Virus record (IMG/VR): IMGVR_UViG_2563366800_000007
DNA length: 42,997 nucleotides
Direction: 5' to 3' (one strand)
From: a virus
Taxonomy: Duplodnaviria > Heunggongvirae > Uroviricota > Caudoviricetes
The stretch's first letter is position 1; every line of letters begins with the position of its first letter. Positions 2,835-14,057 of this stretch are shown here, piece after piece. Both the position numbers and the translations under genes were made by a program. The notes below the pieces were generated by a model. It was not told the origin of the DNA. It saw only the letters and a list, made by a program, of their open reading frames with translations, and searched no databases.

Positions 2835-5800
2835 TTATGCCTGAGTACGCAGCGCTTCAAGGCGGCGCAGGTCGAAGTCGTTCAGTTCGTCGGTGTAGTC
2901 AGCAGTGATTGGCGCTGGCCATTCACCTGTGTCGAATCCGGTTGCGATATTGCGCATCGCTTTGCGGTACTCGAGCATACCCAGCTCCAGTAGTTCAGCG
3001 GATGCCTCGATGATGGCGATCCAGTGGTAGTTCTCGTCTTTGTTGACGAAAATCCAGAAGAACTGATCCAGCGCTGCGGTTTCGCAGTACATAGCCGCGC
3101 TCAGGTGATAATCACGTTCAATAATTTCCCGGTGTAGCCTGGCGCGCAGGCTTTCCTGCTTAACATTCCACATGCTGATGGTTTTCAGGTCTGCACCTAT
3201 ACGCACGCCATCCAGGTCGATCTCAAGGTCAGGGCGCACACGAACTTCCAAGCCCGTCTCCTCGTCAAAACCAAAGTAGCTCACCTCAACGGCTCGGCTA
3301 GGGTGGGTCAGCAGCATGCCGGCGGTCGGGTGTGCCAGAAGCGCTTTTTGAATATTCAGCGCGGTGCTCAGCTGCTGGCGGGTGACCAGCACTTTTCCTT
3401 CCGGGTTATCGCGCCAGGCATCCAGCAGTTCGTCGGCAAATACGGCATCTGGTTTGACTGCCTTCACGGCCTGGATCATGTCTGCTTTGGTACCGGACAC
3501 TTTCAGTGGTGCCGGTTTCTGTGCTTCCTGAGCCACAAGGTCAGGGTTGATGATTGCCAACTGCTCCAGCAGCGCGTCACGGCTGCCGCTGGTTTTAACC
3601 GGCGGCGGCAGGGTGGCGTTGTACTCTTTAATGCATGCCTTCATTGCCGTCGCCGTCTGCTTCTGGTCACCATCAATACGCTGGAAGTCAGCTGGCAGCG
3701 CCATATAGTTCTGTGCCGTTTCTTCCAGGTTAGCGCCAAGCGGAACCTGCGGCGGCAGGGTGGCGTTGTACTCTTCCAGTAACACCTTGATGTCGTCGGC
3801 AGATAGCAGCGCCGGCAGGCTGGCATTGTGCTCATCGATAAAGGCGCGCAGGGTCGCGGCCGTTGTGAATGCGCCTTCAGGGATCACCGGTTCAACGCTG
3901 AATTCTGCGTCCAGTAGTTCAGGCTGCAACGCCAGCGCATGCACCAAGTTGCCCATGTCCAGCACCGCTGAGCGCTCTTTGACGATGGTTTTCTCTACGT
4001 GGCGCGCATTGAAGTACATCAGCGAAACGCGCGCATCTTTCACCTGGGTTGAGCTGATGCCGTTGGCGGCGTGGTAAACCTCGTTTGGCAGCCCTTCATA
4101 GCGGCCTGGCTCGAAATAAGCGGGATAAACAACAGCTGGTTCGTCAGATTGCGCTTCTGGCTCGGTTTGTGCTGCAACTGGTTCGGTTTGGCTTACAGAA
4201 TCGCTATTTTTGGCGACAGAATCCGTATTCTGGTTTACATCGTCCTTCTGGCTGGTATCTGACTCTTCACCAGACTCCAGACTGCTTTCGCCTGGCTGTA
4301 CTTCATCACCAACATTTTTTTCATCACTGACAGTTTCTTCCATCTGCACATTGCTGGTGGTTTCCTCATTAAGTGGTGAACGGTTATCTGTTTGTGTTTG
4401 TTGATCGCCCATCAGGCCATCAATGGAGAATACGCCGTTGCCCATGTTGGCGATTTGTGGCTGTTTAGCAGCTGTTTTCTGCTCTGCAGCGACCTGCTCA
4501 TTAACCTCATTTTCCCAGCTGACGTCCGGCGCATGACCAGCATCAGCCAGCGTTTCTTCTGAGGGGTTTGAGTGGTCATTTTCGGTTAGATTGGCGTTGA
4601 TATATGCCCGCAACCGCCCAGGAAAGTTAACCAATTCTGATGATGTGCCGCGGATGAGTGCAAAGATGGCGGCGCGTGAATAGTCCAGGATGCCAGCGGT
4701 TTTGCGCAGCGCCTCAGACCATTCGCTGAACGGACTTTCTTTCTTGCTGACAATCTCTTTAGCGCGACGGTAGACCCCACCAGGTATGTCGTAGATATTG
4801 AAATCCATTGGCAAGGTGGCCAGCGCAATTTCAACATCCAAAGTGTCCAGTGTGTGGACATAGTCGGTATTACGATCGGTCTTATTTCCACCGCCAGCAT
4901 TGGTTTTGACGTCAGTACGTTGAATCTGCGCAACGCGGTTACCTTTCTGCCATTCCTTGACCAGCAGGCCACGGTCGATGTAATTAGTGTTGAACCACAC
5001 AGTCAGGAACTGGATAACTGTTGCCAGCTCCGGTTTTTTACCGTCGACAGGGAAGACTTTCTTAACAGCATTCACGACTTTATGAATATCGTGCTCAATG
5101 GCTTTTTTGAATGCTTCCACATTCTCAGCAGCCAGCAGCAGGTTCTGGATGTACGTGTCATCAGTGTCCATCTCAAGGCGGACAATCTCGTTTTTCTGCC
5201 CAGCGTCGATGTGATAGAGATATTCACCATCACCGATGAACTGAGCCAGTACGCGCTGACGGAATGGCAGGGTGGCTACGACGATCAGGTTCGGCTGATC
5301 TGGCTGCTGAGATTGTTCTTCGGTACCGACTTCATCACCAACGCTGGTGGTTTCAGTTTTGAGCAGAGGAAACCTGCCACTGCGCCAGTCTTCAACCAGT
5401 TGATTGCGATCACCTGATTCTGCGTTCACCCAGTCAGACATGAAAGCAGCGATCACTTCAGGTCCATGCTCTTCACCCTGTTCGAAGATGTCTTTAATCG
5501 CCTGAATCATTTTCCACTCAGCATTAAGACTGAGTTCGCCAACTTCAGGAACATCATTTTTAACCTGCAGCAAGTTCTGGAGATAGGTATTGCTTTCGTC
5601 CAGTGACATTTCGCTGGCAGCCAGCTGCTGCTCTTTAGTGACGTGAGTCTGGTACTTATCGCTCATCAGATGGAAGGCAAAACGGACTGCTGGAGTGCGG
5701 TTTTCTAACGATACATTCTCGTCAGAAGTCGCTACTTCATCTGTATTTTTTACATCGGCAGGGATAGTGGTGACAACGTCGCCAGCGGCCTTTGGCAGCC

Positions 5801-6170
5801 AGGTGCGCCCGTCGTCCTGCAGTTCGTAACGATCACACCAGGTGAAATCAACTTCACCTTCTTCCGGCAGGTCGTCATATATCGGGAAATCGGTGCGGAT
5901 TGGTTTGGCATAATCTTTACCGCGGCCAGTTTCTTCAATTCCGGCTTCTTCCAGTGCCACATCGAGTTGGAGATTGGCGCGCGCTACACTTTTCGCAGTG
6001 AACCAAATCACGGCATCTTTCTTGCCAGACTTCTGACTGGCTTTTATCAGATGGAAAAATTCCATGTGAGATCCTCTTTTTTGAGTGTTAGAATCCCCGG
6101 GCCAGAGATAGCGCCCATTGGATGTTTTTTGGTTTGGTATAAATTCCGGTGTAACTTTGGTCGGTGGCAC
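2835..6170 (-). CDS. recE: RecE-like exodeoxyribonuclease VIII (long N-terminal region plus C-terminal PD-(D/E)xK nuclease domain)
   Basis: 1111-aa ORF; C-terminal RPDLEIDLDGVRIGADLKT fits a PD-(D/E)xK active site; partner of RecT; internal repeated EYNATLPP motif. Confidence 0.7.
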   Translation of the reverse strand: MPPTKVTPEFIPNQKTSNGRYLWPGDSNTQKRGSHMEFFHLIKASQKSGKKDAVIWFTAKSVARANLQLDVALEEAGIEETGRGKDYAKPIRTDFPIYDDLPEEGEVDFTWCDRYELQDDGRTWLPKAAGDVVTTIPADVKNTDEVATSDENVSLENRTPAVRFAFHLMSDKYQTHVTKEQQLAASEMSLDESNTYLQNLLQVKNDVPEVGELSLNAEWKMIQAIKDIFEQGEEHGPEVIAAFMSDWVNAESGDRNQLVEDWRSGRFPLLKTETTSVGDEVGTEEQSQQPDQPNLIVVATLPFRQRVLAQFIGDGEYLYHIDAGQKNEIVRLEMDTDDTYIQNLLLAAENVEAFKKAIEHDIHKVVNAVKKVFPVDGKKPELATVIQFLTVWFNTNYIDRGLLVKEWQKGNRVAQIQRTDVKTNAGGGNKTDRNTDYVHTLDTLDVEIALATLPMDFNIYDIPGGVYRRAKEIVSKKESPFSEWSEALRKTAGILDYSRAAIFALIRGTSSELVNFPGRLRAYINANLTENDHSNPSEETLADAGHAPDVSWENEVNEQVAAEQKTAAKQPQIANMGNGVFSIDGLMGDQQTQTDNRSPLNEETTSNVQMEETVSDEKNVGDEVQPGESSLESGEESDTSQKDDVNQNTDSVAKNSDSVSQTEPVAAQTEPEAQSDEPAVVYPAYFEPGRYEGLPNEVYHAANGISSTQVKDARVSLMYFNARHVEKTIVKERSAVLDMGNLVHALALQPELLDAEFSVEPVIPEGAFTTAATLRAFIDEHNASLPALLSADDIKVLLEEYNATLPPQVPLGANLEETAQNYMALPADFQRIDGDQKQTATAMKACIKEYNATLPPPVKTSGSRDALLEQLAIINPDLVAQEAQKPAPLKVSGTKADMIQAVKAVKPDAVFADELLDAWRDNPEGKVLVTRQQLSTALNIQKALLAHPTAGMLLTHPSRAVEVSYFGFDEETGLEVRVRPDLEIDLDGVRIGADLKTISMWNVKQESLRARLHREIIERDYHLSAAMYCETAALDQFFWIFVNKDENYHWIAIIEASAELLELGMLEYRKAMRNIATGFDTGEWPAPITADYTDELNDFDLRRLEALRTQA

Positions 6171-6203
6171 CGGACGTGAATCCCGCCTTGCGCGGGGTTT
6201 TCG

Positions 6204-6365
6204 TTATGCTTCGTGGGCCATCTGGTCGAACGAAGCGCAACGTACTGAACAGTAATCACGTTGCTCGCGTTTCAACTGCGTGCCGTGGATAAAGAGCAGT
6301 TCGTTTTTAACTTCCTTCCCTTGCTTGATCGGCTTGCGGCAGTACGCGCATTTTTTCTCCTGCAT
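6204..6365 (-). CDS. Small Cys4 zinc-ribbon protein (YdaE-like by position)
   Basis: 53-aa ORF below the 60-aa track cutoff, translated by hand: MQEKKCAYCRKPIKQGKEVKNELLFIHGTQLKREQRDYCSVRCASFDQMAHEA; two Cys pairs (CxxC ... CxxxC); lies between the KilR-like ORF and recE as in Rac-type prophages. Confidence 0.45.
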   Translation of the reverse strand: MQEKKCAYCRKPIKQGKEVKNELLFIHGTQLKREQRDYCSVRCASFDQMAHEA

Positions 6366-6376
6366 AACTCACTCCG

Positions 6377-6583
6377 TTAATGGCTAAGGCCATGTCCTAA
6401 ACCGTTTAGATAAACCTCAACCAGCAAATCTTTGGTGTAGGTACGTTCGATGCCACGGTGAAGATACAGGCGACCGCGTGCGTTAGCAGATGCGGTCCAG
6501 GTTGAGTCTTTGTGTTTTACAAGCATCCCCGGCTGAACTGCGCCGCGGTTTACTGTCTGTGTACCGTAGTGCTGATGAACCAT
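6377..6583 (-). CDS. KilR-like small protein (assigned by synteny); a longer 116-aa reading to 6727 is possible
   Basis: Internal ATG at 6583 is preceded by GGAGAA about 7 nt upstream and gives a 68-aa product (MVHQHYG...EVYLNGLGHGLSH); function inferred only from position relative to recET in Rac-like prophages. Confidence 0.35.
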   Translation of the reverse strand: MVHQHYGTQTVNRGAVQPGMLVKHKDSTWTASANARGRLYLHRGIERTYTKDLLVEVYLNGLGHGLSH

Positions 6584-6938
6584 GATGTTCTCCACTATTG
6601 CTGAGTGAACTTCGCTGGTGGTGCCGTGACGCTGATCTTCACAGTTGAGCGTTTTAACTCTGCAATTCACCACCGCGAAGCTCACTTCTGTGTTTGCCCT
6701 TGTCGCCAGGCTGGCGGAACGTTTCAAACCTACTGCGCGTTAATATCACCACCTCATTCCGGTTTTCGTATGCCCCGGACGGCTACTTCGTGGGCTCCAT
6801 GCCTGGGTGGTTCGTGGTGCGTCTTGGTGAGTTAGATTAAATCACTGGTTTATATATATGTCAACTTAAGGTTAGTGTTAATTGTAAATCTGAGGTTTAT
6901 GTGGCTGGGTTTTGTGACACGTCTGCAGAATCGCAGGC

Positions 6939-6967
6939 AAAAAAAATCCCGACGCTAAGGTCGAGAT
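6939..6967 (-). terminator. Rho-independent terminator candidate (minus strand)
   Basis: Imperfect 8-bp stem (atcccgac / gtcgagat on the plus strand) with a 6-nt loop, followed on the minus strand by a run of 8 U. Confidence 0.45.
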
Positions 6968-7017
6968 CGGGGACTTCGTGGCTGGGTGTTGGCGGCTGAG
7001 ATGGTGGGTGAGGGTGT

Positions 7018-7041
7018 AAAAAACCCGGCGCTGTGGCCGGG
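7018..7041 (-). terminator. Rho-independent terminator downstream of the HicAB-SecB-like operon
   Basis: GC stem cccggc / gccggg with a 6-nt loop, followed on the minus strand by a 6-U run; lies 8 bp past the stop of the 7049..7474 gene. Confidence 0.55.
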
Positions 7042-7048
7042 TTGGAGA

Positions 7049-7474
7049 TTATTTTCTAGATGATGTTGGGGACCAAGGTAACGTTATAGTATCTAACACT
7101 GTGTTTTTGAACATATTTTCAAAAACTGTTTTTGTACATACATATACATAATTTTCAAAAAACCAAGCATTTTCATTATAAAAATCCTCAGTTACTTCTT
7201 CATCGAGGTCACACTCAAATGTTAGTGTCAAGGTAGCCTCTGCCTTGAACAATACATCCTCACCATCATCAAAATCTTTTTTATCGCGAGGGAAACCAGT
7301 TATCGATGGCTTAACTTCAATAAAGAGCCAATTTCCATCTTCATCTTTTTGAGGAACAACGTGATGCTCAGAAAATTTTAAGCTATATTTTCCGCCTTCA
7401 GAATTATCACTGTCGTCGATAAAAAGGGAAGAACCCTCGAGATCAAATCCCTTAAAGCGAATTTTATCAAGCAT
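7049..7474 (-). CDS. Acidic SecB-like chaperone candidate (third gene of the hicAB operon)
   Basis: 141-aa acidic product (MLDKIRFKGFDLEG...); its ATG overlaps the HicB stop (TGATG), implying translational coupling; N-terminal IRFKGFDLE and C-terminal FENYVYVCTKTVF...ITLP segments loosely match SecB (IQRIYTKDISFE, LFPYARECI...LNLAP); AT-rich by eye. The track ORF begins 36 nt upstream at 7510. Confidence 0.5.
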   Translation of the reverse strand: MLDKIRFKGFDLEGSSLFIDDSDNSEGGKYSLKFSEHHVVPQKDEDGNWLFIEVKPSITGFPRDKKDFDDGEDVLFKAEATLTLTFECDLDEEVTEDFYNENAWFFENYVYVCTKTVFENMFKNTVLDTITLPWSPTSSRK

Positions 7475-7932
7475 CAATGTGGCACTCCGTTGTCTACTGA
7501 AACTTCCCAATAGGTCTCTTCTGTACGTCTACGGGATGAGAAGAAAGTAACTTCTCTAACATCCCTCGGTTTTTCAAAGTGGTAGTGAACCTCTTTTTTC
7601 CCATTAACTGACTCACTGACAGCCTGTTTTACATAATCGTTTAAAGTCATATTCTTAGCTTTAGCAGCTAAATATGCTTTTTTATGCAGGGATTCACCTA
7701 TCCGGATGTTAAACGAACCACTCATTGTCTTATCTGGAGATTTTCCTATCTCTTCACAAGTGGAGAGGTAATCGTCCACGGCCTCCTCAAAGGCTGCACG
7801 GAGTTCTGCAACCGTTGCACCCTCATAAGTGACGAGATCATTTATACATTCGAGTTTTCCATGCATCACCCCATCTTCAAATGAAATGCTGGAGCTACCA
7901 TAGTAACCTTTGTATTTCATCAAGTTATTCAT
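7474..7932 (-). CDS. hicB: HicB-family antitoxin (RNase H-like fold plus ribbon-helix-helix) with an about 45-aa aromatic-rich C-terminal extension
   Basis: MKYKGYYGS...HGKL...TYEGATVAELRAAFEEAVDDYL is a typical HicB N-domain; SGSFNIRIGESLHKKAYLAAKAKNMTLNDYVKQAV looks like an RHH DNA-binding motif; an extra tail ...KKEVHYHFEKPRDVREVTFFSSRRRTEETYWEVSVDNGVPH follows. Start 7932 or 7920 (track ORF starts at 7947). Confidence 0.8.
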   Translation of the reverse strand: MNNLMKYKGYYGSSSISFEDGVMHGKLECINDLVTYEGATVAELRAAFEEAVDDYLSTCEEIGKSPDKTMSGSFNIRIGESLHKKAYLAAKAKNMTLNDYVKQAVSESVNGKKEVHYHFEKPRDVREVTFFSSRRRTEETYWEVSVDNGVPH

Positions 7933-8179
7933 GATCATCAATCTCATCTAACAGCTGTTTAACTTCTTCCAAGACGTACCTTTTGAGGGTGTTTTCAGGA
8001 TGAGGCTCATGAAAAATGACCAATCTATCAACACGTTGGTTGTAAAATTTACGGCCAGAACCTCGTTTAGCATTCAAAAGCTTGAAGCCATACTGGTTCA
8101 TGAGAGTAACGAACTCATCCCAAGTAAAATTTTTGGGTAAGCCGTCTAACTTTGACTTTAGCTTTTCCTTTCTTCCCAC
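7925..8179 (-). CDS. hicA: HicA-family toxin (putative mRNA interferase)
   Basis: 84-aa ORF (GTG start) MGRKEKLKSKLDGLPKNFTWDEFVTLMNQYGF...RGSGRKF...IFHEPHP matches the HicA pattern (KxFTWDE...GSH/GSxR...H); 3-prime end overlaps the hicB start. Confidence 0.8.
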   Translation of the reverse strand: MGRKEKLKSKLDGLPKNFTWDEFVTLMNQYGFKLLNAKRGSGRKFYNQRVDRLVIFHEPHPENTLKRYVLEEVKQLLDEIDDHE

Positions 8180-8205
8180 GAAGGATACATCCTCTGTTAA
8201 AGGTA

Positions 8206-8227
8206 GTGCAACTGAAATCTAGTTGCA
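8206..8227. promoter_or_regulatory. Palindromic operator candidate upstream of hicA (GTGCAACT-n7-AGTTGCA)
   Basis: 7 to 8-bp inverted repeat with a 7-bp spacer, 27 to 50 bp upstream of the hicA start codon; RHH antitoxins typically bind such palindromes. Confidence 0.4.
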
Positions 8228-8339
8228 AGCTATGCTATCTATAGACAAAATGTTTCATTGTTATATCAGAAGATACCCGATCTGTTTCACCTTCAACTAC
8301 TATAATTTGTTATAAGCTATCAACCGGTGGAACTGCGAA

Positions 8340-8438
8340 TTAGCCGCTGGGTGTTGCGTATCCATCGATGATAAACCATGCCATAAACCCCATAGCTACG
8401 ATGAACACCAAGATCGGAAACACTATACCAATTCTCAT
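8340..8438 (-). CDS. 32-aa hydrophobic peptide (candidate small membrane protein)
   Basis: Hand-translated ORF MRIGIVFPILVFIVAMGFMAWFIIDGYATPSG with AGGGA about 7 nt upstream of the ATG; a single predicted transmembrane helix; lies between repressor 1 and the hicA promoter. Confidence 0.3.
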   Translation of the reverse strand: MRIGIVFPILVFIVAMGFMAWFIIDGYATPSG

Positions 8439-8483
8439 GATTTTATCCCTGTCTACCCATGCTTCCTGGGCACCAGCGGCTCG

Positions 8484-8876
8484 TTACTCGGCATCGCCCT
8501 TAATCCGCCGCCCCATATATTTGGCGTACAGATCGTCGAGTTCCTTCAGGCGCAGTGATACCGCCTTAAGAACTCCACCCTGATTCTCTTCGGGGAGTTG
8601 ACGGAAAAGGCGTAAAAGCTCTTGCTCATTACTTTTTAATCCATCATTGGGCCCTATATCCTGCCCCAAAACCCAGGCTAAATTCACACCAAGCGCATCA
8701 GCTAGCTTAAGTGCGGAGTTTTTCCCAATAGTTCCCCTTACAAACCAGTTGTTAACCGACTGGGATGTTACGCCACAAATTCTGGCCAGATCTGCTTTTG
8801 AGAGATGTTTACTATTCGTGATCTCATTGAGTCGTCTGACCTGTGGGTTATCTGATTCGTGTGTATTTTTTCTCAT
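8484..8876 (-). CDS. CI-like HTH repressor, paralog 1
   Basis: HTH segment LSKADLARICGVTSQSVNNWF followed by a coiled C-terminal region (LKELDDLYAKYM); leftward orientation opposite the Cro-like ydaS, typical of an immunity repressor. ATG at 8876 chosen (track ORF begins with GTG at 8891). Confidence 0.7.
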   Translation of the reverse strand: MRKNTHESDNPQVRRLNEITNSKHLSKADLARICGVTSQSVNNWFVRGTIGKNSALKLADALGVNLAWVLGQDIGPNDGLKSNEQELLRLFRQLPEENQGGVLKAVSLRLKELDDLYAKYMGRRIKGDAE

Positions 8877-8895
8877 GTACAAGAGTATCACTTAG

Positions 8896-9279
8896 CTAAT
8901 CAGCATCGCCCCTGATTCTGCGATTCATGTACTTGGCATATAGTTCATCGAGTTCCTTCAGACGCAGGGAGAAGATCCTTATCATATTCTGCTGTTCTTC
9001 TTCCGGTAACTGTCTGTAGAGCTCCAGAATACGTTGTTCATCAGGCTTAAGACCATCCTTCTCTCCAACATCCTCACCGAGTAGCCAGGCGACAGAAATA
9101 CCAACAGCGTCGGCTATGGCCAGTGCCGATTTCTTACTAATCACGCCTTTTTTGAACCAGCCGTTTACGGCCTGAGGGGTGACTCCAGCTATTCTTGCCA
9201 TGTCTGCTTTGGTAACGCCGCGATCAGTGATCTCAGTAAGGCGCTCCACCAGAACGAGGTTGGGTTCTTCTTTTCTCAT
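8896..9279 (-). CDS. CI-like HTH repressor, paralog 2
   Basis: Internal ATG at 9279 gives a 127-aa product (MRKEEPNLVLVERLTEITDRGVTKADMARIAGVTPQAVNGWF...LKELDELYAKYM) roughly half identical by eye to paralog 1; the track ORF extends upstream through the divergent promoter region and is probably not translated. Confidence 0.7.
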   Translation of the reverse strand: MRKEEPNLVLVERLTEITDRGVTKADMARIAGVTPQAVNGWFKKGVISKKSALAIADAVGISVAWLLGEDVGEKDGLKPDEQRILELYRQLPEEEQQNMIRIFSLRLKELDELYAKYMNRRIRGDAD

Positions 9280-9381
9280 ATGGTCATTGTAAATATTTGG
9301 TTTATGCACGCAATAAATCCAAAGTTTGCATGAAGTATAAATCTGTGGTTTACTTCTGCTATCAATAAGCAGGAGAAGCAC
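9280..9381. promoter_or_regulatory. Divergent immunity promoter/operator region between the repressors and ydaS
   Basis: 102-bp AT-rich spacer with repeated TTTAT / ATAAA half-sites (for example TTTATGCACGCAATAAA); candidate rightward promoter TTGCAT-n17-TTTACT ahead of the AGGAGAAG ribosome-binding site of ydaS. Confidence 0.5.
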
Positions 9382-9600
9382 ATGTCCGCACTCGATAAAG
9401 CAATTAAAGCCGCTGGCTCTGCCAGAAAGCTCAGCATCGCGCTTGGTGTGACGAGTATGTCTGTAAGTCATTGGAAGAATCGTGACCAAGGGATCGTCCC
9501 GCCAAGCTATATCTTCCCGATTTTCAAAATGACAGGCGTAACCCCCCACGAGCTGCGCCCTGATCTCTATCCAAATCCCACTGACGGATTACCAAAGTAG
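9382..9600 (+). CDS. ydaS: YdaS-family Cro-like regulator
   Basis: 72 aa; MSALDKAIKAAGSARKLSIALGVTSMSVSHW... is the characteristic YdaS N-terminus and HTH; first rightward gene from the immunity region. Confidence 0.75.
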   Translation: MSALDKAIKAAGSARKLSIALGVTSMSVSHWKNRDQGIVPPSYIFPIFKMTGVTPHELRPDLYPNPTDGLPK

Positions 9601-9611
9601 GAGCACTGACA

Positions 9612-10169
9612 ATGCAAACACTTTCTTTTCAACAGAATAACAGAGCGCCATCAGAGCACCTGAAATTCCAGTATCAACACAGTGAGGCTGAAGGCCAGCC
9701 GGTCGATCACCGGGCTATCTGTTCTGCCGTCCGCGCCTGGGCGGCGGCAGAGGGCCGCGTGGCGGTCGCTCTGGCGATTAAAGAGGCTGCCGAACAGGCC
9801 GAGCTTGACAGCATTGACATGACCGGCAGCGCCGATGTGTGGAACGTGAAGCTGTTTCGCTGGCTGGACAACCACGAGAAATCACCGGCCTACCGGGCGA
9901 ACGTCGAGCAGCTGGCGCCGGTAATAATTTCGGTTCTGCCGCTGGCGTACCGGGATCGCGTGATTAAGCACGACTGCTTTGCGGTTCGTGTCGCCAGGTC
10001 GGTGAAAGAAGACGCTGAGGCGATACAGGCTGTCGTCCTCAAAGCCCCCAGACACGAACGGATGAAGGAAATCAGCGAGAGCATCGTAGCCAAGCTCTAC
10101 CTGGACGGACCTGATTCTGTGGCGCCCATTATGGCGATGGTTACAACGATGCTGGGTGGTGCGCTATGA
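9612..10169 (+). CDS. ydaT: YdaT-family protein (CII-like regulator)
   Basis: 185-aa ORF immediately downstream of ydaS, as in Rac-type prophages; assignment by synteny and general similarity. Confidence 0.6.
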   Translation: MQTLSFQQNNRAPSEHLKFQYQHSEAEGQPVDHRAICSAVRAWAAAEGRVAVALAIKEAAEQAELDSIDMTGSADVWNVKLFRWLDNHEKSPAYRANVEQLAPVIISVLPLAYRDRVIKHDCFAVRVARSVKEDAEAIQAVVLKAPRHERMKEISESIVAKLYLDGPDSVAPIMAMVTTMLGGAL

Positions 10170-10253
10170 CGGGCTCAGAAATGGCGAAAGCCGCGGTGCT
10201 CGAACACCAACGGCTTTCAGGTGCAAAAACTGTGCGTAATTGCGGAGAACAGT

Positions 10254-11162
10254 ATGTCAAATACCGCTGAAATAATCAATTTCCCAAATAAAACCGAACA
10301 ACCGGGAGGTCGTATGGCCGACCTGTCGAACGGGTATACCAAGGTCGCTAACGAGATCCAACAGCTTAAGCCTCGCCTGAGACTGTCAGGCCGGGAATGG
10401 CAATGTTTTGAGGCGGTGATCTGGCTTACCTACGGCTGGAACAAGAAACAGGACCGCGTGACAAATACGGTTATTGCCGAGCTTACGGGCCTGAGCGATA
10501 CGCATGTATCGGACGCGCTTAAGTCTCTCGCAGAACGCAAAATCATCTTTTCACAGAAGCAGGGCATGATGAAAATCGTCGGTGTAAACACTGACCTTTC
10601 AGCATGGATTTTAGACAAACCGGAAACGGGAAGAAAATTCCCGAAAACGGGAAAATCCTTCCCGAAATCAGGAATAACCTTCCCGAAAACGGTAGACACC
10701 CAATACAAGAACAAGAACAGTATTAAAAGATCTTCGTCCGAGAATTCTGACGAATCCTCTGACGCACGTCTGAAGAAATTTTTATCAACTCATCCTGAAG
10801 CTGCGGTCTACACACCATCCGGTGCGAAGTGGGGCTCTGCTGAAGACCTCGAGACAGCTAAGTGGATTTCCTCCAGGGTGAAGCTGATTAACCCAACCTG
10901 CAAAGCCCCGGACATGACCTCCTGGTCTAACACTGTTCGCCTGATGCGCCAGATAGACAACCGGTCGCACCAGGACATCTGCGCGCTGTATGACTGGGCT
11001 AGCAAACACCACTTCTGGCAGACCAACATCCTGAGTCCCGAAAGCCTGCGTAAGCAGTGGGACAAGCTGACAATGCAGCGTAACGCCGGAGGTGAGCAGC
11101 GCGCTGTCAAGCCAGATCTGGACTTCAACAACACTGACTGGGCCTATGGGGTGATCCGATGA
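10254..11162 (+). CDS. Replication initiator, lambda O-like replisome organiser
   Basis: N-terminal LSGREWQCFEAVIWLTYGWNKKQDRVTNTVIAELTGLSDTHVSDALKSLAERKII is typical of the phage replisome-organiser domain; contains in-gene iterons; followed by a P-like gene. Start at 10254 (GGAGAA upstream). Confidence 0.8.
   Translation: MSNTAEIINFPNKTEQPGGRMADLSNGYTKVANEIQQLKPRLRLSGREWQCFEAVIWLTYGWNKKQDRVTNTVIAELTGLSDTHVSDALKSLAERKIIFSQKQGMMKIVGVNTDLSAWILDKPETGRKFPKTGKSFPKSGITFPKTVDTQYKNKNSIKRSSSENSDESSDARLKKFLSTHPEAAVYTPSGAKWGSAEDLETAKWISSRVKLINPTCKAPDMTSWSNTVRLMRQIDNRSHQDICALYDWASKHHFWQTNILSPESLRKQWDKLTMQRNAGGEQRAVKPDLDFNNTDWAYGVIR
10617..10700 (+). repeat. Origin iterons: four direct repeats of about 21 bp (core CCCGAAAACGG) inside the O-like gene
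   Basis: Read directly: ccggaaacgggaa / cccgaaaacgggaa / cccgaaatcaggaa / cccgaaaacggta at 21-bp spacing, encoding the repeated FPKTGKS / FPKSGIT peptide; an AT-rich stretch follows, as at lambda ori. Confidence 0.6.
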
Positions 11163-11848
11163 AATCTCTTGCAGAGCAGATGCGTAACCACGACCGCGAG
11201 CAGATGAGCCGCATGGCCCATAACCTGCCAGAGCAGTACCAGGAGTGCGCGCCGGTCGAGCAGGTGGCGCAGGTATTCAACAAGCTGTTCAACGAGCTGC
11301 GCGCCGCGTTCCCGGCCAGCATGGCGAACTTCCGCACCCAGGAAGACCTGAACGAATTCCGCCGTCAGTGGCTGCTGGCGTTTCAGGAGAACGGGATCCA
11401 CACCATGGCTCAGGTCGATGCCGGCATGCGCATTGCCCGCCGCCAGGAGCGCCCATTCCTGCCGTCGCCGGGCCAGTTCGTCGCCTGGTGCAAGCAGAGC
11501 GGCGGCGCGCTGGGCGTCAACGTTGACCAGGTGATCGCCGAATACTGGGACTGGCGTAACCGCTCGTTCGAATTCATCTCCAGCGAGCAATTTCCATGGT
11601 CGCAGCCGGTCATGTACCACATTTGCGTAGAATTGCGCCACCGCAGCACCGAGCGCCAGTTAACGCATGGTGAACTGGCACGCGAGGCAGGCGATCTGCT
11701 GGACATGTGGGAAAGGCGCGTCACCGAGGGTAAGCCAGTGCCGCCGGTACGCCGGGCTATTGCCGCACCAGCTGCCGAGCAAGGGCCGACGCCGATCCAG
11801 CTGCTGCTGGCCAAGTACAACCGCAACAAGTCGAACGGGATGGTGTGA
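11159..11848 (+). CDS. Replication protein P-like (DnaB helicase loader)
   Basis: 229-aa product matches lambda P over its length by recall (AEQM.N.DREQM.R.A.N.PEQY...VQQVAQ..N..F..L...FPAS.AN...RRQW.LAF.ENGI.TM.QV.AGMR.ARRQ.RPFLPSPGQFVAWC). Confidence 0.85.
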   Translation: MKSLAEQMRNHDREQMSRMAHNLPEQYQECAPVEQVAQVFNKLFNELRAAFPASMANFRTQEDLNEFRRQWLLAFQENGIHTMAQVDAGMRIARRQERPFLPSPGQFVAWCKQSGGALGVNVDQVIAEYWDWRNRSFEFISSEQFPWSQPVMYHICVELRHRSTERQLTHGELAREAGDLLDMWERRVTEGKPVPPVRRAIAAPAAEQGPTPIQLLLAKYNRNKSNGMV

Positions 11849-11849
11849 C

Positions 11850-12090
11850 ATGAACATAACAATCCGTGAGCAGGTGCTGGCAGCCCTGCGCAACAACCCA
11901 GGGTTGAACAACGCCAAACTGGCAGGGCTTCCCGGAGTGGTACATCATCGATCAGGACTATCGGGGGCAGAAGTACGCGAAGGACAAGCAGGTTGCGCGT
12001 TGTGGCAACGCAGTTCCGCCGCCATTCGCCGAGGCACTGGTGAGGGCTAATTTACCGGAGCTTTGTCAGCAGAAAGAGATCGCAGCTTAA
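11850..12090 (+). pseudogene. Remnant of a C5-cytosine DNA methyltransferase (3-prime end only, no in-frame start)
   Basis: One frame encodes ...EWYIIDQDYRGQKYAKDKQVARCGNAVPPPFAEALVRANLPELCQQKEIAA, the C-terminal block of C5-methyltransferases, preceded by a stop; an overlapping 67-aa ORF in another frame has no recognisable similarity. Confidence 0.5.
12031..12090 (+). repeat. Direct repeat copy 1 (methylase 3-prime end), partner at 12619..12678
   Basis: 60-bp segment gaggcactggtgagggctaatttaccggagctttgtcagcagaaagagatcgcagcttaa, about 85% identical to the downstream copy. Confidence 0.6.
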
Positions 12091-12151
12091 TGTCCGAGTT
12101 TCAGAACATGGTGTAACAAATCCTGCTACTTCAATGACGTAGATTCAAACC

Positions 12152-12160
12152 TGATATAAT
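12152..12160 (+). promoter_or_regulatory. Extended -10 promoter candidate (TGaTATAAT) for the 12190..12426 gene
   Basis: TGnTATAAT motif about 30 bp upstream of the start codon; a leader hairpin (aggctc ... gagcct) would pair with part of the GAGGAG Shine-Dalgarno. Confidence 0.4.
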
Positions 12161-12189
12161 TAGGCTCTTCACAACACGAGGAGCCTAAA

Positions 12190-12426
12190 ATGCACCATTA
12201 CATGATCCCTATCAACGGAATTGTTCACCTGATCAAGACTGACTCTCTAATCCCTGAAGGGACTGAGTATAGCTTTGAAGGAGAAAGTCTAATCTGCGCT
12301 CATGCCACTTTTAAATCTGGGACGTATGGCTTCCTGATACCAAAGGGAAATCAGTTGAATAGAGAGCATGCGTTCTGGCATGTAAGTGGAATTCACCCTA
12401 ATCCCCTGGGAATGGATAAATCGTAA
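12190..12426 (+). CDS. Hypothetical 78-aa protein (orphan moron gene)
   Basis: Strong GAGGAG Shine-Dalgarno 7 nt upstream of the ATG; AT-rich; no recognisable motifs (MHHYMIPINGIVHLIKTDSLIPEGTEYSFEGESLICAHATFKSGTYGFLIPKGNQLNREHAFWHVSGIHPNPLGMDKS). Confidence 0.5.
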   Translation: MHHYMIPINGIVHLIKTDSLIPEGTEYSFEGESLICAHATFKSGTYGFLIPKGNQLNREHAFWHVSGIHPNPLGMDKS

Positions 12427-12434
12427 TCCATAAT

Positions 12435-12471
12435 ATGCATGCCATCGTCCTGAACATACGGTGGCATGCAT
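12435..12471. other. 13-bp near-perfect inverted repeat (ATGCATGCCAtCG - n11 - CGgTGGCATGCAT)
   Basis: Read directly, 9 bp downstream of the stop of the 78-aa gene; 12 of 13 arm positions pair; no U-run follows. Confidence 0.5.
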
Positions 12472-12618
12472 CCGGCACTACAACAGAAACGTTAAAGTGC
12501 AAACAATACAATTCGAGCAATATTCAACCTGTCACAGATGGCGAATACCACCGCCATTTCGTGCATTCTGTGGTTTCTATTACCCATTGCGTTAATGCTG
12601 TCCAATCATCAGCTCGCT

Positions 12619-12678
12619 GAGGCGCTGGTTAGGGCTAACCTACAGGAGCTTTGTCAGCAGAAACAAATAGCGGCGTAA
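12619..12678 (+). repeat. Direct repeat copy 2 (degraded methylase 3-prime end with a frameshift)
   Basis: gaggcgctggttagggctaacctacaggagctttgtcagcagaaacaaatagcggcgtaa; encodes ...LAEALVRANLQELCQQKQIAA out of frame with the upstream ...HCVNAV segment. Confidence 0.55.
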
Positions 12679-12785
12679 TAAAACATCGCTAATTCAACCC
12701 GCTACGGCGAGTTTTCTTTTTTTACTACTGACAGAAAATTAACAATTTGTGCTCTTAAAGCGTTGATCATTTCCGCGCATAGGTA

Positions 12786-12805
12786 TACTGTATAAAAACA
12801 CAGTA
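12786..12805. promoter_or_regulatory. LexA box (SOS operator) upstream of dinI
   Basis: TACTGTATAAAAACACAGTA fits the CTGT-n8-ACAG consensus; 19 bp upstream of the dinI start. Confidence 0.75.
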
Positions 12806-12823
12806 AATGCAATGGGGGCCATT

Positions 12824-13057
12824 ATGAAAGTTGAATTAACCATTGATCGCATGAAAGAACTTCCTAAAGGCGCAGTACCAGCACTGGAGAAAGAACTGCT
12901 TAAGCGCCTGAATGATCACTATGACAATTGCAGGCTCACAATCCGCCGTGCCGGGGCCGATGGGTTAAGTGTTTTTGGTGGTGACAAGGACGATAAAAAG
13001 AAAATTGAATCAATCCTCCAGGATACCTGGGAAAGCGCTGACGACTGGTTTTATTAG
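12824..13057 (+). CDS. dinI: DinI-family DNA-damage-inducible protein
   Basis: MKVELTIDRMKELPKGAVPALEKELLKRLN...ESILQDTWESADDWF matches the DinI pattern (…ISEILQETWESADDWF); LexA box upstream. Start 12824 (track ORF begins at 12812). Confidence 0.8.
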   Translation: MKVELTIDRMKELPKGAVPALEKELLKRLNDHYDNCRLTIRRAGADGLSVFGGDKDDKKKIESILQDTWESADDWFY

Positions 13058-13174
13058 AATTGCGCTTAAGGCTGGCGCGCATTTTTCAGAATACCGCAAT
13101 TTGCGTAACCCTCTGATGCTGCTGCCGACAATCTTTAATCGCGTCTGTTAGTCGCTCGAAGGGAGAACATAAAT

Positions 13175-13423
13175 GTGAGTGATTCAGCTTTGCAAACGTC
13201 AGAAGACAACTGGTATGACATTGTAAGAAGGTCTGACGGCTGCGTGGTGTTTAGCTTTCCTTCATCGGGCAGGCATCTAATTTATCGCGTCAATGGCATG
13301 GTTTCTATGCGGCCTTTGCTGGATGATGAAGAGGTCTTTACTCCTAATGGTTTTATGCAGTTTATTCACCGTCTCGGCTACCGGGTAACCCCACCTTCTG
13401 ATAATATGAAATCAACGGTCTGA
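13175..13423 (+). CDS. Hypothetical small protein
   Basis: 82-aa ORF with GTG start, GGGAG about 9 nt upstream; no recognisable motifs. Confidence 0.4.
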   Translation: MSDSALQTSEDNWYDIVRRSDGCVVFSFPSSGRHLIYRVNGMVSMRPLLDDEEVFTPNGFMQFIHRLGYRVTPPSDNMKSTV

Positions 13424-13457
13424 ACAACCGTAACCTACTGCGCCACGGAGAGAAACC

Positions 13458-14057
13458 ATGGCGCACGAACTACAACTCATCAAGCATTCCTCAGGAATCC
13501 TGATCCCCGCTACGCCGGAGACCAGTGATTTACTGCAATCAAAAATCAAACTCGGCTCCGTACTGGTGGCTGAGTTCCGGCAGGTACGCAACCCGGCCTT
13601 TCACCGTCGTTTCTTCGCGTTACTCAATCTCGGTTTCGAATACTGGGAACCCACCGGCGGGGCAATCTCCTCCAACGAACGCAAGCTGGTAACCGGCTAT
13701 GCCAAGTTCCTTGCCTCATTCGCGGGAAGTGAAGCAGCACTCCTGGATGCTGCTGAGCAATATCTGGACCGCATCGCCGATAAGCGTACTGGTAGCATCT
13801 GCGCCTGTAAGTCATTCGATGCATATCGTGCATGGGTCACTATTGAGTCCGGCCATTACGACGCCATTCAGCTGCCTGACGGCACCCTCCGCAAACATCC
13901 CCGCAGTATCTCATTCGCAAATATGGATGAAACTGAGTTCCAGCAGCTGTACAAAGCCGCGCTCGATGTTCTGTGGCGATGGATACTCTCCCGATCATTT
14001 CGCAGTTGTGAAGAGGCAGAAAACGCCGCCGCCCAGCTGATGAGCTTTGCGGGGTGA
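13458..14057 (+). CDS. Conserved lambdoid nin-region protein (DUF1367-like)
   Basis: 199-aa product (MAHELQLIKHSSGILIPATPETSDLLQSKIKLGSVL...FANMDETEFQQLYKAALDVLWRWIL) resembles proteins found between replication and Q genes in enterobacterial prophages; assignment from recall. Confidence 0.6.
   Translation: MAHELQLIKHSSGILIPATPETSDLLQSKIKLGSVLVAEFRQVRNPAFHRRFFALLNLGFEYWEPTGGAISSNERKLVTGYAKFLASFAGSEAALLDAAEQYLDRIADKRTGSICACKSFDAYRAWVTIESGHYDAIQLPDGTLRKHPRSISFANMDETEFQQLYKAALDVLWRWILSRSFRSCEEAENAAAQLMSFAG

Follow-up and report, generated by a model that had tools for sequence, protein, structure and literature searches.

A second, operator-less repressor gene behind the resident repressor of a Rac/Gifsy-like lambdoid prophage: possible hetero-immunity cargo

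Introduction

Why would a prophage carry two repressor genes, one directly behind the other, in a single immunity region, when textbook immunity gives each phage a single repressor that protects against homoimmune phages only? The question was raised by a 42,997-nucleotide stretch of viral DNA (Caudoviricetes; IMG/VR record IMGVR_UViG_2563366800_000007), the whole of which is referred to here as the window. Two adjacent leftward genes in it encode helix-turn-helix (HTH) proteins, namely the proximal repressor B (127 amino acids; 8896-9279, minus strand), which is divergent from the gene ydaS across the operator region, and the distal repressor A (130 amino acids from its ATG; 8484-8876, minus strand). 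A first-pass annotation, made from the letters alone, had described them as a duplicated pair of CI-like repressors that could provide dual or hetero-immunity, or of which one copy could regulate the other. We suggest, with a probability of about 0.5, that A is an operator-less orphan repressor, held as cargo of the immunity operon and giving the lysogen immunity to a second group of phages.

Results and Discussion

Operator sites in the window and in related prophages

The region between B and ydaS (9280-9381) had been read as a divergent promoter region followed by a cro-like gene, and this was borne out: it contained three operator-like 15-mers (9290-9352) that form the right operator (OR), and ydaS matched its Pfam family. 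The outer two sites (9290-9304 and 9338-9352) were exact copies of TAAAT-N5-GTTTA (TAAACC-N4-ATTTA when read on the opposite strand), and the middle site (9314-9328) was degenerate. Two more sites of this B type (6838-6852 and 6885-6899) flanked the TTGACA -35 hexamer of the leftward promoter (PL) at the left operator (OL; 6838-6899), from which transcription runs leftward into kil, ydaE and recET. The B-type 15-mer was present in four copies in the window against 0.07 expected, all of them at OR or OL, 2.4 kb apart, and it also emerged as the repeat families D3 and D4; no other repeated palindrome was found between 6560 and 9400. The same operator sites were seen in all loci whose repressor carried the recognition helix PQAVNGW. 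They are the predicted operators of B at OR and OL, and B is, on this reading, the prophage's own lysogeny repressor.

A survey of about 220 loci, drawn from complete E. coli genomes, GenBank phages, GTDB species representatives, IMG/VR, metagenomes and a large protein collection, allowed repressors and operators to be compared. As the survey was seeded with A-like sequences, the frequencies of tandem versus single repressors in it are biased. Over about 130 loci the operator sequence co-varied cleanly with the recognition helix: type A' (helix S/A-QSVNNW) went with TAAAC-N5-GTTTA, type B (PQAVNGW) with TAAACC-N4-ATTTA, type B2 (KQAVSSW, probably the GfhR type) with TAAAGC-N4-WTTTA, and type B3 (PQSVNGW) with TAAGC-N5-RCTTA. 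A repressor with the N-domain of B (99-100% identical) stood alone in ET881 and in six further species-representative genomes, where OR was the same too. Genes of type A' were ca. 73% identical to A overall and 79-81% identical in the N-domain, with an identical SQSVNNWFVRG helix, and about 170 loci had one of them as sole repressor. Detailed analysis of 92 such loci showed two TAAAC-N5-GTTTA sites 20 and 70 nucleotides upstream of the gene without exception (92/92), and two further sites at OL in 85. This A-type immunity group was common in Klebsiella, Citrobacter, Enterobacter and Salmonella, and was present in 11 complete E. coli genomes.

The site that accompanies A-family sole repressors was missing around A itself. 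Not one TAAAC-N5-GTTTA site occurred in the whole window, and a search of the window with one mismatch allowed returned only the B-type sites and a single match inside the B coding sequence (9153-9167). The site was likewise absent from the 22 tandem loci that were analysed in detail (185 kb) and from the complete 44-kb genome of phage mEp237, and the operators of the proximal repressor were present in each of these as well as in the window. It was also absent in 1368KP and in locus L088, where the distal gene is a bona fide A' allele, two residues off the sole repressor of WEM25-type prophages. The distal repressor, a DNA-binding protein that is conserved and under selection, has no cognate site in the phage that encodes it, and would therefore be an orphan. 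Among the earlier proposals, dual or hetero-immunity was the one best supported by this operator analysis, in which B-type sites marked OR and OL while A-type sites were absent, yet accompanied A-family repressors wherever these stood alone.

Distribution and conservation of the tandem pair

Tandem pairs were found in four of 5426 complete E. coli genomes, namely AR_0118, whose prophage matches the window, and three others. They were also found in the viable phages mEp237 (gp39/gp38) and Salmonella SEN34 (43/42), in two more IMG/VR contigs, in two metagenome contigs, and in about 63 E. coli and Salmonella contigs that encode proteins P0001, P0004 and P0006. In every tandem the A-family gene was distal and the B-family gene proximal. 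The N-domain of the window's A (type A1, GVTSQSVNNW) occurred in the distal position only, and as a sole repressor in none of about 70 contigs and loci, the search having covered complete E. coli genomes, GTDB species representatives, IMG/VR, JGI/ENA metagenomes and a collection of 15 billion proteins. Five of the six possible combinations of distal and proximal types were seen (A1+B, A1+B2, A1+B3, A'+B and A'+B2), and since the specificities are shuffled in this way, we argue that the two repressors act independently. The same shuffling, together with the lack of any operator between the genes or before A, spoke against the earlier suggestion that one copy regulates the other.

Inactivating mutations in one copy, which the first-pass annotation had named as grounds for doubt, were looked for and neither gene of the window is inactivated. 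The distal copy was intact in all 22 tandems. Ratios of nonsynonymous to synonymous divergence (dN/dS) among distal copies were 0.016-0.24 over the gene and 0.03-0.08 in the DNA-binding domain, similar to the 0.03 of sole repressors, and synonymous divergence (dS) between distal copies reached about 1.5. The distal copies are under purifying selection. Given the low dN/dS and the 22 intact copies, we rejected the reading of A as a pseudogene or a relic.

The pair had been described as 127 and 130 amino acids long and roughly half identical with a common C-terminal block, all of which was accurate. BLASTP aligned A and B with 75/130 identities (58%) and 77% positives (E-value 3e-54), far beyond chance, and both contain the block SLRLKELD(D/E)LYAKYM. 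To call them a duplicated pair was misleading. Synonymous sites between A and B were saturated, so the pair is not a recent duplication, and a recent tandem duplication was ruled out by this saturation together with the grouping of A and B with different specificity clades. The pair is, as far as its divergence tells, an old pairing of two specificity clades.

The 19-nucleotide spacer from the B stop to the A ATG (8877-8895, minus strand) was identical in 20 of the 22 tandem loci; a Salmonella locus (L127) had three changes, and the spacer of SEN34 was different and 27 nucleotides long. Among all proximal repressors in tandems the C-terminal half was nearly identical, and their last nine residues, NRRIRGDAD, were nearer to the A-family tail GRRIKGDAE than to the KGRIRSQGD of single B-type repressors. 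This pattern points to recombination within the 3' ends of the genes as the origin of the junction, which would since have spread as a block.

Repressor class of A and B

Both proteins are predicted to be short, non-cleavable repressors of the Gifsy/DicA class. The only Pfam families found in them were N-terminal HTH families: HTH_3 scored 28.7 bits in A and 28.5 bits in B against a cut-off of 23, and Phage_CI_repr (PF07022, cut-off 22 bits) scored above its cut-off in A (26.3) and just below it in B (20.1). Pfam found no S24 peptidase domain anywhere in the 130 residues of A or the 127 of B. An AlphaFold model of A (predicted local distance difference test score 83) was all-helical, with a linker joining a five-helix HTH domain of the 434 type to a C-terminal helical hairpin (residues 82-126). 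Sequence searches of the PDB and Foldseek searches gave generic HTH matches only (SinR and the P22 c2 and 434 N-domains), none with an E-value of 0.001 or below, and ubiquitin matches in the PDB sequence search were rejected as low-complexity noise. The NCBIfam DicA subfamily was matched over the full length of both (E-values 5e-7 for A and 9.6e-7 for B), with 29 bits against a cut-off of 101. RefSeq labels both genes in E. coli AR_0118 as helix-turn-helix domain-containing protein.

The earlier name "CI-like" was therefore right as to role and wrong as to architecture. A and B resemble lambda CI, P22 C2 and 434 cI in the role of lysogeny repressor, in the 434-type HTH fold of the N-domain, and in a tripartite OR accompanied by OL. 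They differ from them at the other end of the protein, where those repressors have LexA-like, RecA-stimulated autocleavage, whereas A and B have neither the S24 peptidase domain with its Ser-Lys dyad nor the Ala-Gly site region, and end in a 50-residue helical hairpin. The Gifsy repressors GfoR, GfhR and GtgR are short and non-cleavable, and DicA and RacR have been named as their relatives (Lemire, Figueroa-Bossi and Bossi 2011; PMC3121763). A and B both have the form typical of that class, a short HTH repressor (about 130-150 amino acids) with no cleavage domain. B, but not A, is encoded divergently from a cro-like gene across its own operators, and a LexA-controlled operon with a small open reading frame (ORF) beside dinI lies outside the immunity region, that ORF being the candidate antirepressor described below. 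Membership of this class, which has no S24 autocleavage domain, implies that induction is mediated by an antirepressor. A GenBank note on mEp237 likens the proximal gene to a regulator of strain 14028S and the distal gene to a prophage protein of D23580; by such notes, on which both links rest, A would be a GfoR-like repressor of the A family, and B2 is probably the GfhR type.

Proposed role of A and alternative explanations

We propose that B binds TAAACC-N4-ATTTA at OR (9290-9352) and OL (6838-6899) and thereby keeps both the ydaS/ydaT/O/P operon and the kil/recET operon off. A, of a different immunity specificity with the predicted site TAAAC-N5-GTTTA, would most likely be co-transcribed with B. 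Because A has no operator or promoter region of its own, it would play no part in the switch of its own prophage. It would instead target incoming A-type phages in trans, making the lysogen immune to two groups. A stands between the repressor and OL, co-oriented with the repressor and inside the terminator-bounded immunity transcript, which is the position that rexAB occupies in lambda, and it may be regarded as defence cargo in that slot, beside hicAB.

We put this no higher than about 0.5, as the specificity, the expression and the trans action of A were all inferred, and several observations weigh against it. The specificity of A was derived from the identity of its recognition helix only. 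Neither a Shine-Dalgarno sequence nor a promoter was recognisable for A, so that its expression is presumed. The B-type operators differ from the A-type pattern at one of ten specified positions, and because the difference is so small, A might bind the operators of B weakly. The C-terminal hairpins of the two proteins are similar, so that A-B heterodimers might form. Finally, as the A1 N-domain has never been seen as a sole repressor, the cognate phage of A may be unsampled, or A may have become specialised.

Alternatively, A could be a partner or modulator of B, tuning the prophage's own switch through heterodimers, mixed oligomers or weak binding to the operators of B. The C-terminal halves of distal and proximal copies are 64-76% identical, an HTH domain followed by a helical hairpin recalls SinR, whose hairpin mediates protein-protein contacts (a weak Foldseek match to 1b0n), and the half-site TAAAC of the B-type operators equals the A-type half-site. 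The near-identical C-terminal domain of proximal copies, which travels together with the spacer and the first part of the distal gene, could be counted in its favour as well, although it is explained by linkage to the junction. We nevertheless consider such a partnership unlikely, since the same distal type is found beside three proximal types, each with different operators (TAAAC/TAAAT, TAAAG and TAAGC), and B alone suffices with the same operators in ET881 and other single-repressor prophages. There is a lower probability still that A is a decoy or buffer for antirepressors, either its own SOS-induced one or those of co-resident prophages, raising the threshold of induction or coupling prophages to one another. 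One candidate antirepressor faces two potential targets in the window, and either of the Salmonella antirepressors GfoA and GfhA inactivates GfoR as well as GfhR (PMC3121763); a pure decoy, however, would have no need of a DNA-binding domain under purifying selection (dN/dS 0.03-0.08) with a fully conserved recognition helix.

We hold it equally improbable that A has a different target, for example a host promoter or the cargo genes yoaK and hicAB, which it would repress through sites unlike the A' operator. The confinement of its N-domain variant to the distal position would fit such a specialised role, and with 81% identity between this variant and the nearest sole-repressor type, a shift in specificity is conceivable. 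On the other side, the region 6560-9400 offered no repeated palindrome other than the B-type operators, and the cargo can hardly be the conserved target because it differs between tandem loci (hicAB, two unknown ORFs, or a 313-amino-acid ORF). That recombination between heteroimmune phages left the tandem behind as a neutral by-product, with A a functionless leftover, is very improbable. Lambdoid immunity regions are highly mosaic (PMC9836094) and the arrangement is rare in complete E. coli genomes (4/5426), which both speak for it, but distal copies that are intact in 22 of 22 cases, old (dS up to about 1.5), under purifying selection and retained in the viable phages mEp237 and SEN34 already make a leftover unlikely.

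Hetero-immunity cargo remains the reading that we favour, and a bolder form of it is tentative and rather doubtful. A1 might be a dedicated lineage of orphan repressors, long kept as mobile hetero-immunity cargo and moving as a junction block that comprises the C-terminus of the resident repressor, the spacer and the orphan repressor. A stronger version, included in the same doubt, would have A-B heterodimers produce a hybrid operator specificity or a new layer of lysis-lysogeny control.

SOS control and the candidate antirepressor

A perfect LexA (SOS) box, CTGTATAAAAACACAG (12788-12803, plus strand; also written as TACTGTATAAAAACACAGTA), was the sole match in the window and lies upstream of a dinI homologue (12824-13057, plus strand; Pfam DinI, E-value 3.8e-26, and annotation) that heads a putative SOS-controlled operon. 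Between dinI and the next gene, an 82-amino-acid ORF with a GTG start and a good ribosome-binding site (13175-13423, plus strand) matched Gifsy gftA/gfoA in position and in start codon; a GTG start has been described for gftA (PMC3121763). The ORF belonged to no Pfam or NCBIfam family, and homologues of it were found in 7/7 phages with a repressor at least 48% identical to A. In mEp237 an identical SOS box precedes the dinI homologue, and the whole module was present (locus L136, 37150-37785). Judging by position and co-occurrence, the ORF is a candidate antirepressor gene.

The Gifsy antirepressors GfoA, GfhA and GftA are small, LexA-controlled proteins encoded next to a dinI homologue, starting with GUG, and they remove repressors from DNA; GfoR and GfhR, though heteroimmune, respond to the same antirepressors (PMC3121763). 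On that model, DNA damage and LexA cleavage would derepress the dinI-antirepressor operon (12788-13423), and the 82-amino-acid product would be expected to strip both A and B from DNA, so that a single SOS-controlled antirepressor would lift both immunities together.

Comparison with known systems

The component parts of this immunity system are known ones: a repressor of the Gifsy/DicA class, an antirepressor under LexA control, ydaS in the role of cro, ydaT as the CII equivalent and cargo in the immunity operon. With Gifsy phages the prophage shares HTH repressors of about 130 amino acids that have no cleavage domain, use one scaffold for heteroimmune specificities and are encoded divergently from a cro-like gene. 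Further features in common are a module of SOS box, dinI and small GTG-start ORF located elsewhere in the prophage, and a RecET, kil and O/P backbone. In Gifsy phages parA follows gfoR/gfhR and, judged by the description, there is apparently one repressor per immunity region, followed by defence cargo (PMC3121763), which in Gifsy-1 and Gifsy-3 comprises remAIN and GiPD474 between the repressor and OL (PMC12724215). Here, by contrast, the first cargo position holds a second repressor of another specificity and with no operators of its own.

The likeness to lambda cI-rexA-rexB and to the cargo of Gifsy-1 and Gifsy-3 lies in genes co-oriented with the repressor up to a terminator before OL. Lambda rexAB and the Gifsy cargo are expressed in the lysogen to exclude other phages, which is what we propose for A; unlike rexAB-type cargo, A would exclude them by classical immunity, that is by operator occupancy, and not by abortive infection. 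The cryptic-prophage repressors DicA (Qin) and RacR (Rac) could be compared with A as orphan immunity factors, being short HTH proteins of the same broad family as A and B, but they sit at their own operators beside their own cro-like genes, and A has neither. In the literature on Gifsy, SEN34 and the mEp phages and in the general literature, we found no description of an operator-less second repressor or of tandem repressors in lambdoid or Gifsy phages, and a second, operator-less repressor of another specificity behind the resident one is apparently undescribed.

If the cargo reading is correct, repressors themselves would be tradeable as defence cargo, broadening the immunity of the lysogen by mimicry of another phage's repressor. 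Immunity-group typing would be complicated by asymmetric cross-immunity, as a tandem lysogen would be immune to A-type phages while A-type lysogens would not be immune to the tandem phage. The prediction of prophage induction and of cross-talk in polylysogens would also be affected, since one SOS-induced antirepressor may lift both immunities at once.

Prophage setting and gene starts

The window is a Rac/Gifsy-like lambdoid prophage of the lambda-like E. coli type. Its segment 8300-9700 (1,401 bases searched) was 99.9% identical to a prophage of E. coli AR_0118 that adjoins kch, the phi80/mEp237 attachment site. Gene content comprised integrase, recET, kil/ydaE, the immunity region, ydaS/ydaT, O/P, a nin-like region, Q, lysis and head genes. 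Rightward, the cro-like ydaS (9382-9600, plus strand; Pfam YdaS_toxin, E-value 1.4e-13, with a weak P22_Cro match) opens the operon and is followed by ydaT (9612-10169, plus strand; Pfam YdaT_toxin, E-value 1.5e-17), which acts as the functional equivalent of CII (PMC9986795).

Leftward, the order was OR, B, A, yoaK, hicA, hicB, orf141, terminators and OL. The cargo between A and OL (7049-8438, minus strand), identified from the RefSeq annotation of the identical AR_0118 locus and from Pfam marks on related loci, consists of a yoaK-like small membrane protein of 32 amino acids (8340-8438), the toxin-antitoxin pair hicA (7925-8179) and hicB (7474-7920), and a 141-amino-acid ORF (7049-7474), all on the minus strand. 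Two terminator-like hairpins with T-runs (6945-7040, minus strand), one found by scan (6968-6945) and one read from the sequence (about 7040-7018), are predicted to end the leftward immunity transcript just before OL. PADLOC returned nothing meaningful for A or for the cargo genes 7049-8438, and no Rfam family was found within 5500-14000 of the window. The cargo slot between repressor and OL is highly variable in size, given that OL lies 0.6 to 3.3 kb beyond the repressor in sole-repressor A'-type loci (L005, L008 and 90 others) whose immunity regions are alike in other respects. Cargo also varied among related prophages: ET881 has a 1404-nucleotide ORF, 1368KP two unknown ORFs, one Salmonella locus HipA_2/DUF3037 and L127 a 313-amino-acid ORF.

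Promoters and translation starts are given here as readings of the sequence. A predicted -10 hexamer (TACAAT) ends six nucleotides before the ATG of B, so the mRNA of B may be leaderless like that of lambda cI. The spacer before A contains neither an operator nor a clear Shine-Dalgarno sequence, nor did the consensus scan pick up a promoter for A there or ahead of it; an in-frame GTG (8891) lies five codons upstream of the ATG of A, four nucleotides past the stop of B. Elsewhere, the distal gene has an in-frame TTG/ATG in a Salmonella locus, and the 27-nucleotide spacer of SEN34 contains a perfect TATAAT. The reading frame of B stays open upstream (9280-9549, minus strand), giving a 217-amino-acid ORF from a GTG at 9549 that overlaps ydaS on the opposite strand. 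Other genomes annotate a 137-amino-acid form of B from a GTG at about 9309, and B2-type genes have an in-frame upstream ATG that yields 155 amino acids. These extended B and B2 frames recall GfhR*, a form with an N-terminal extension that Gifsy-3 produces upon induction (PMC3121763).

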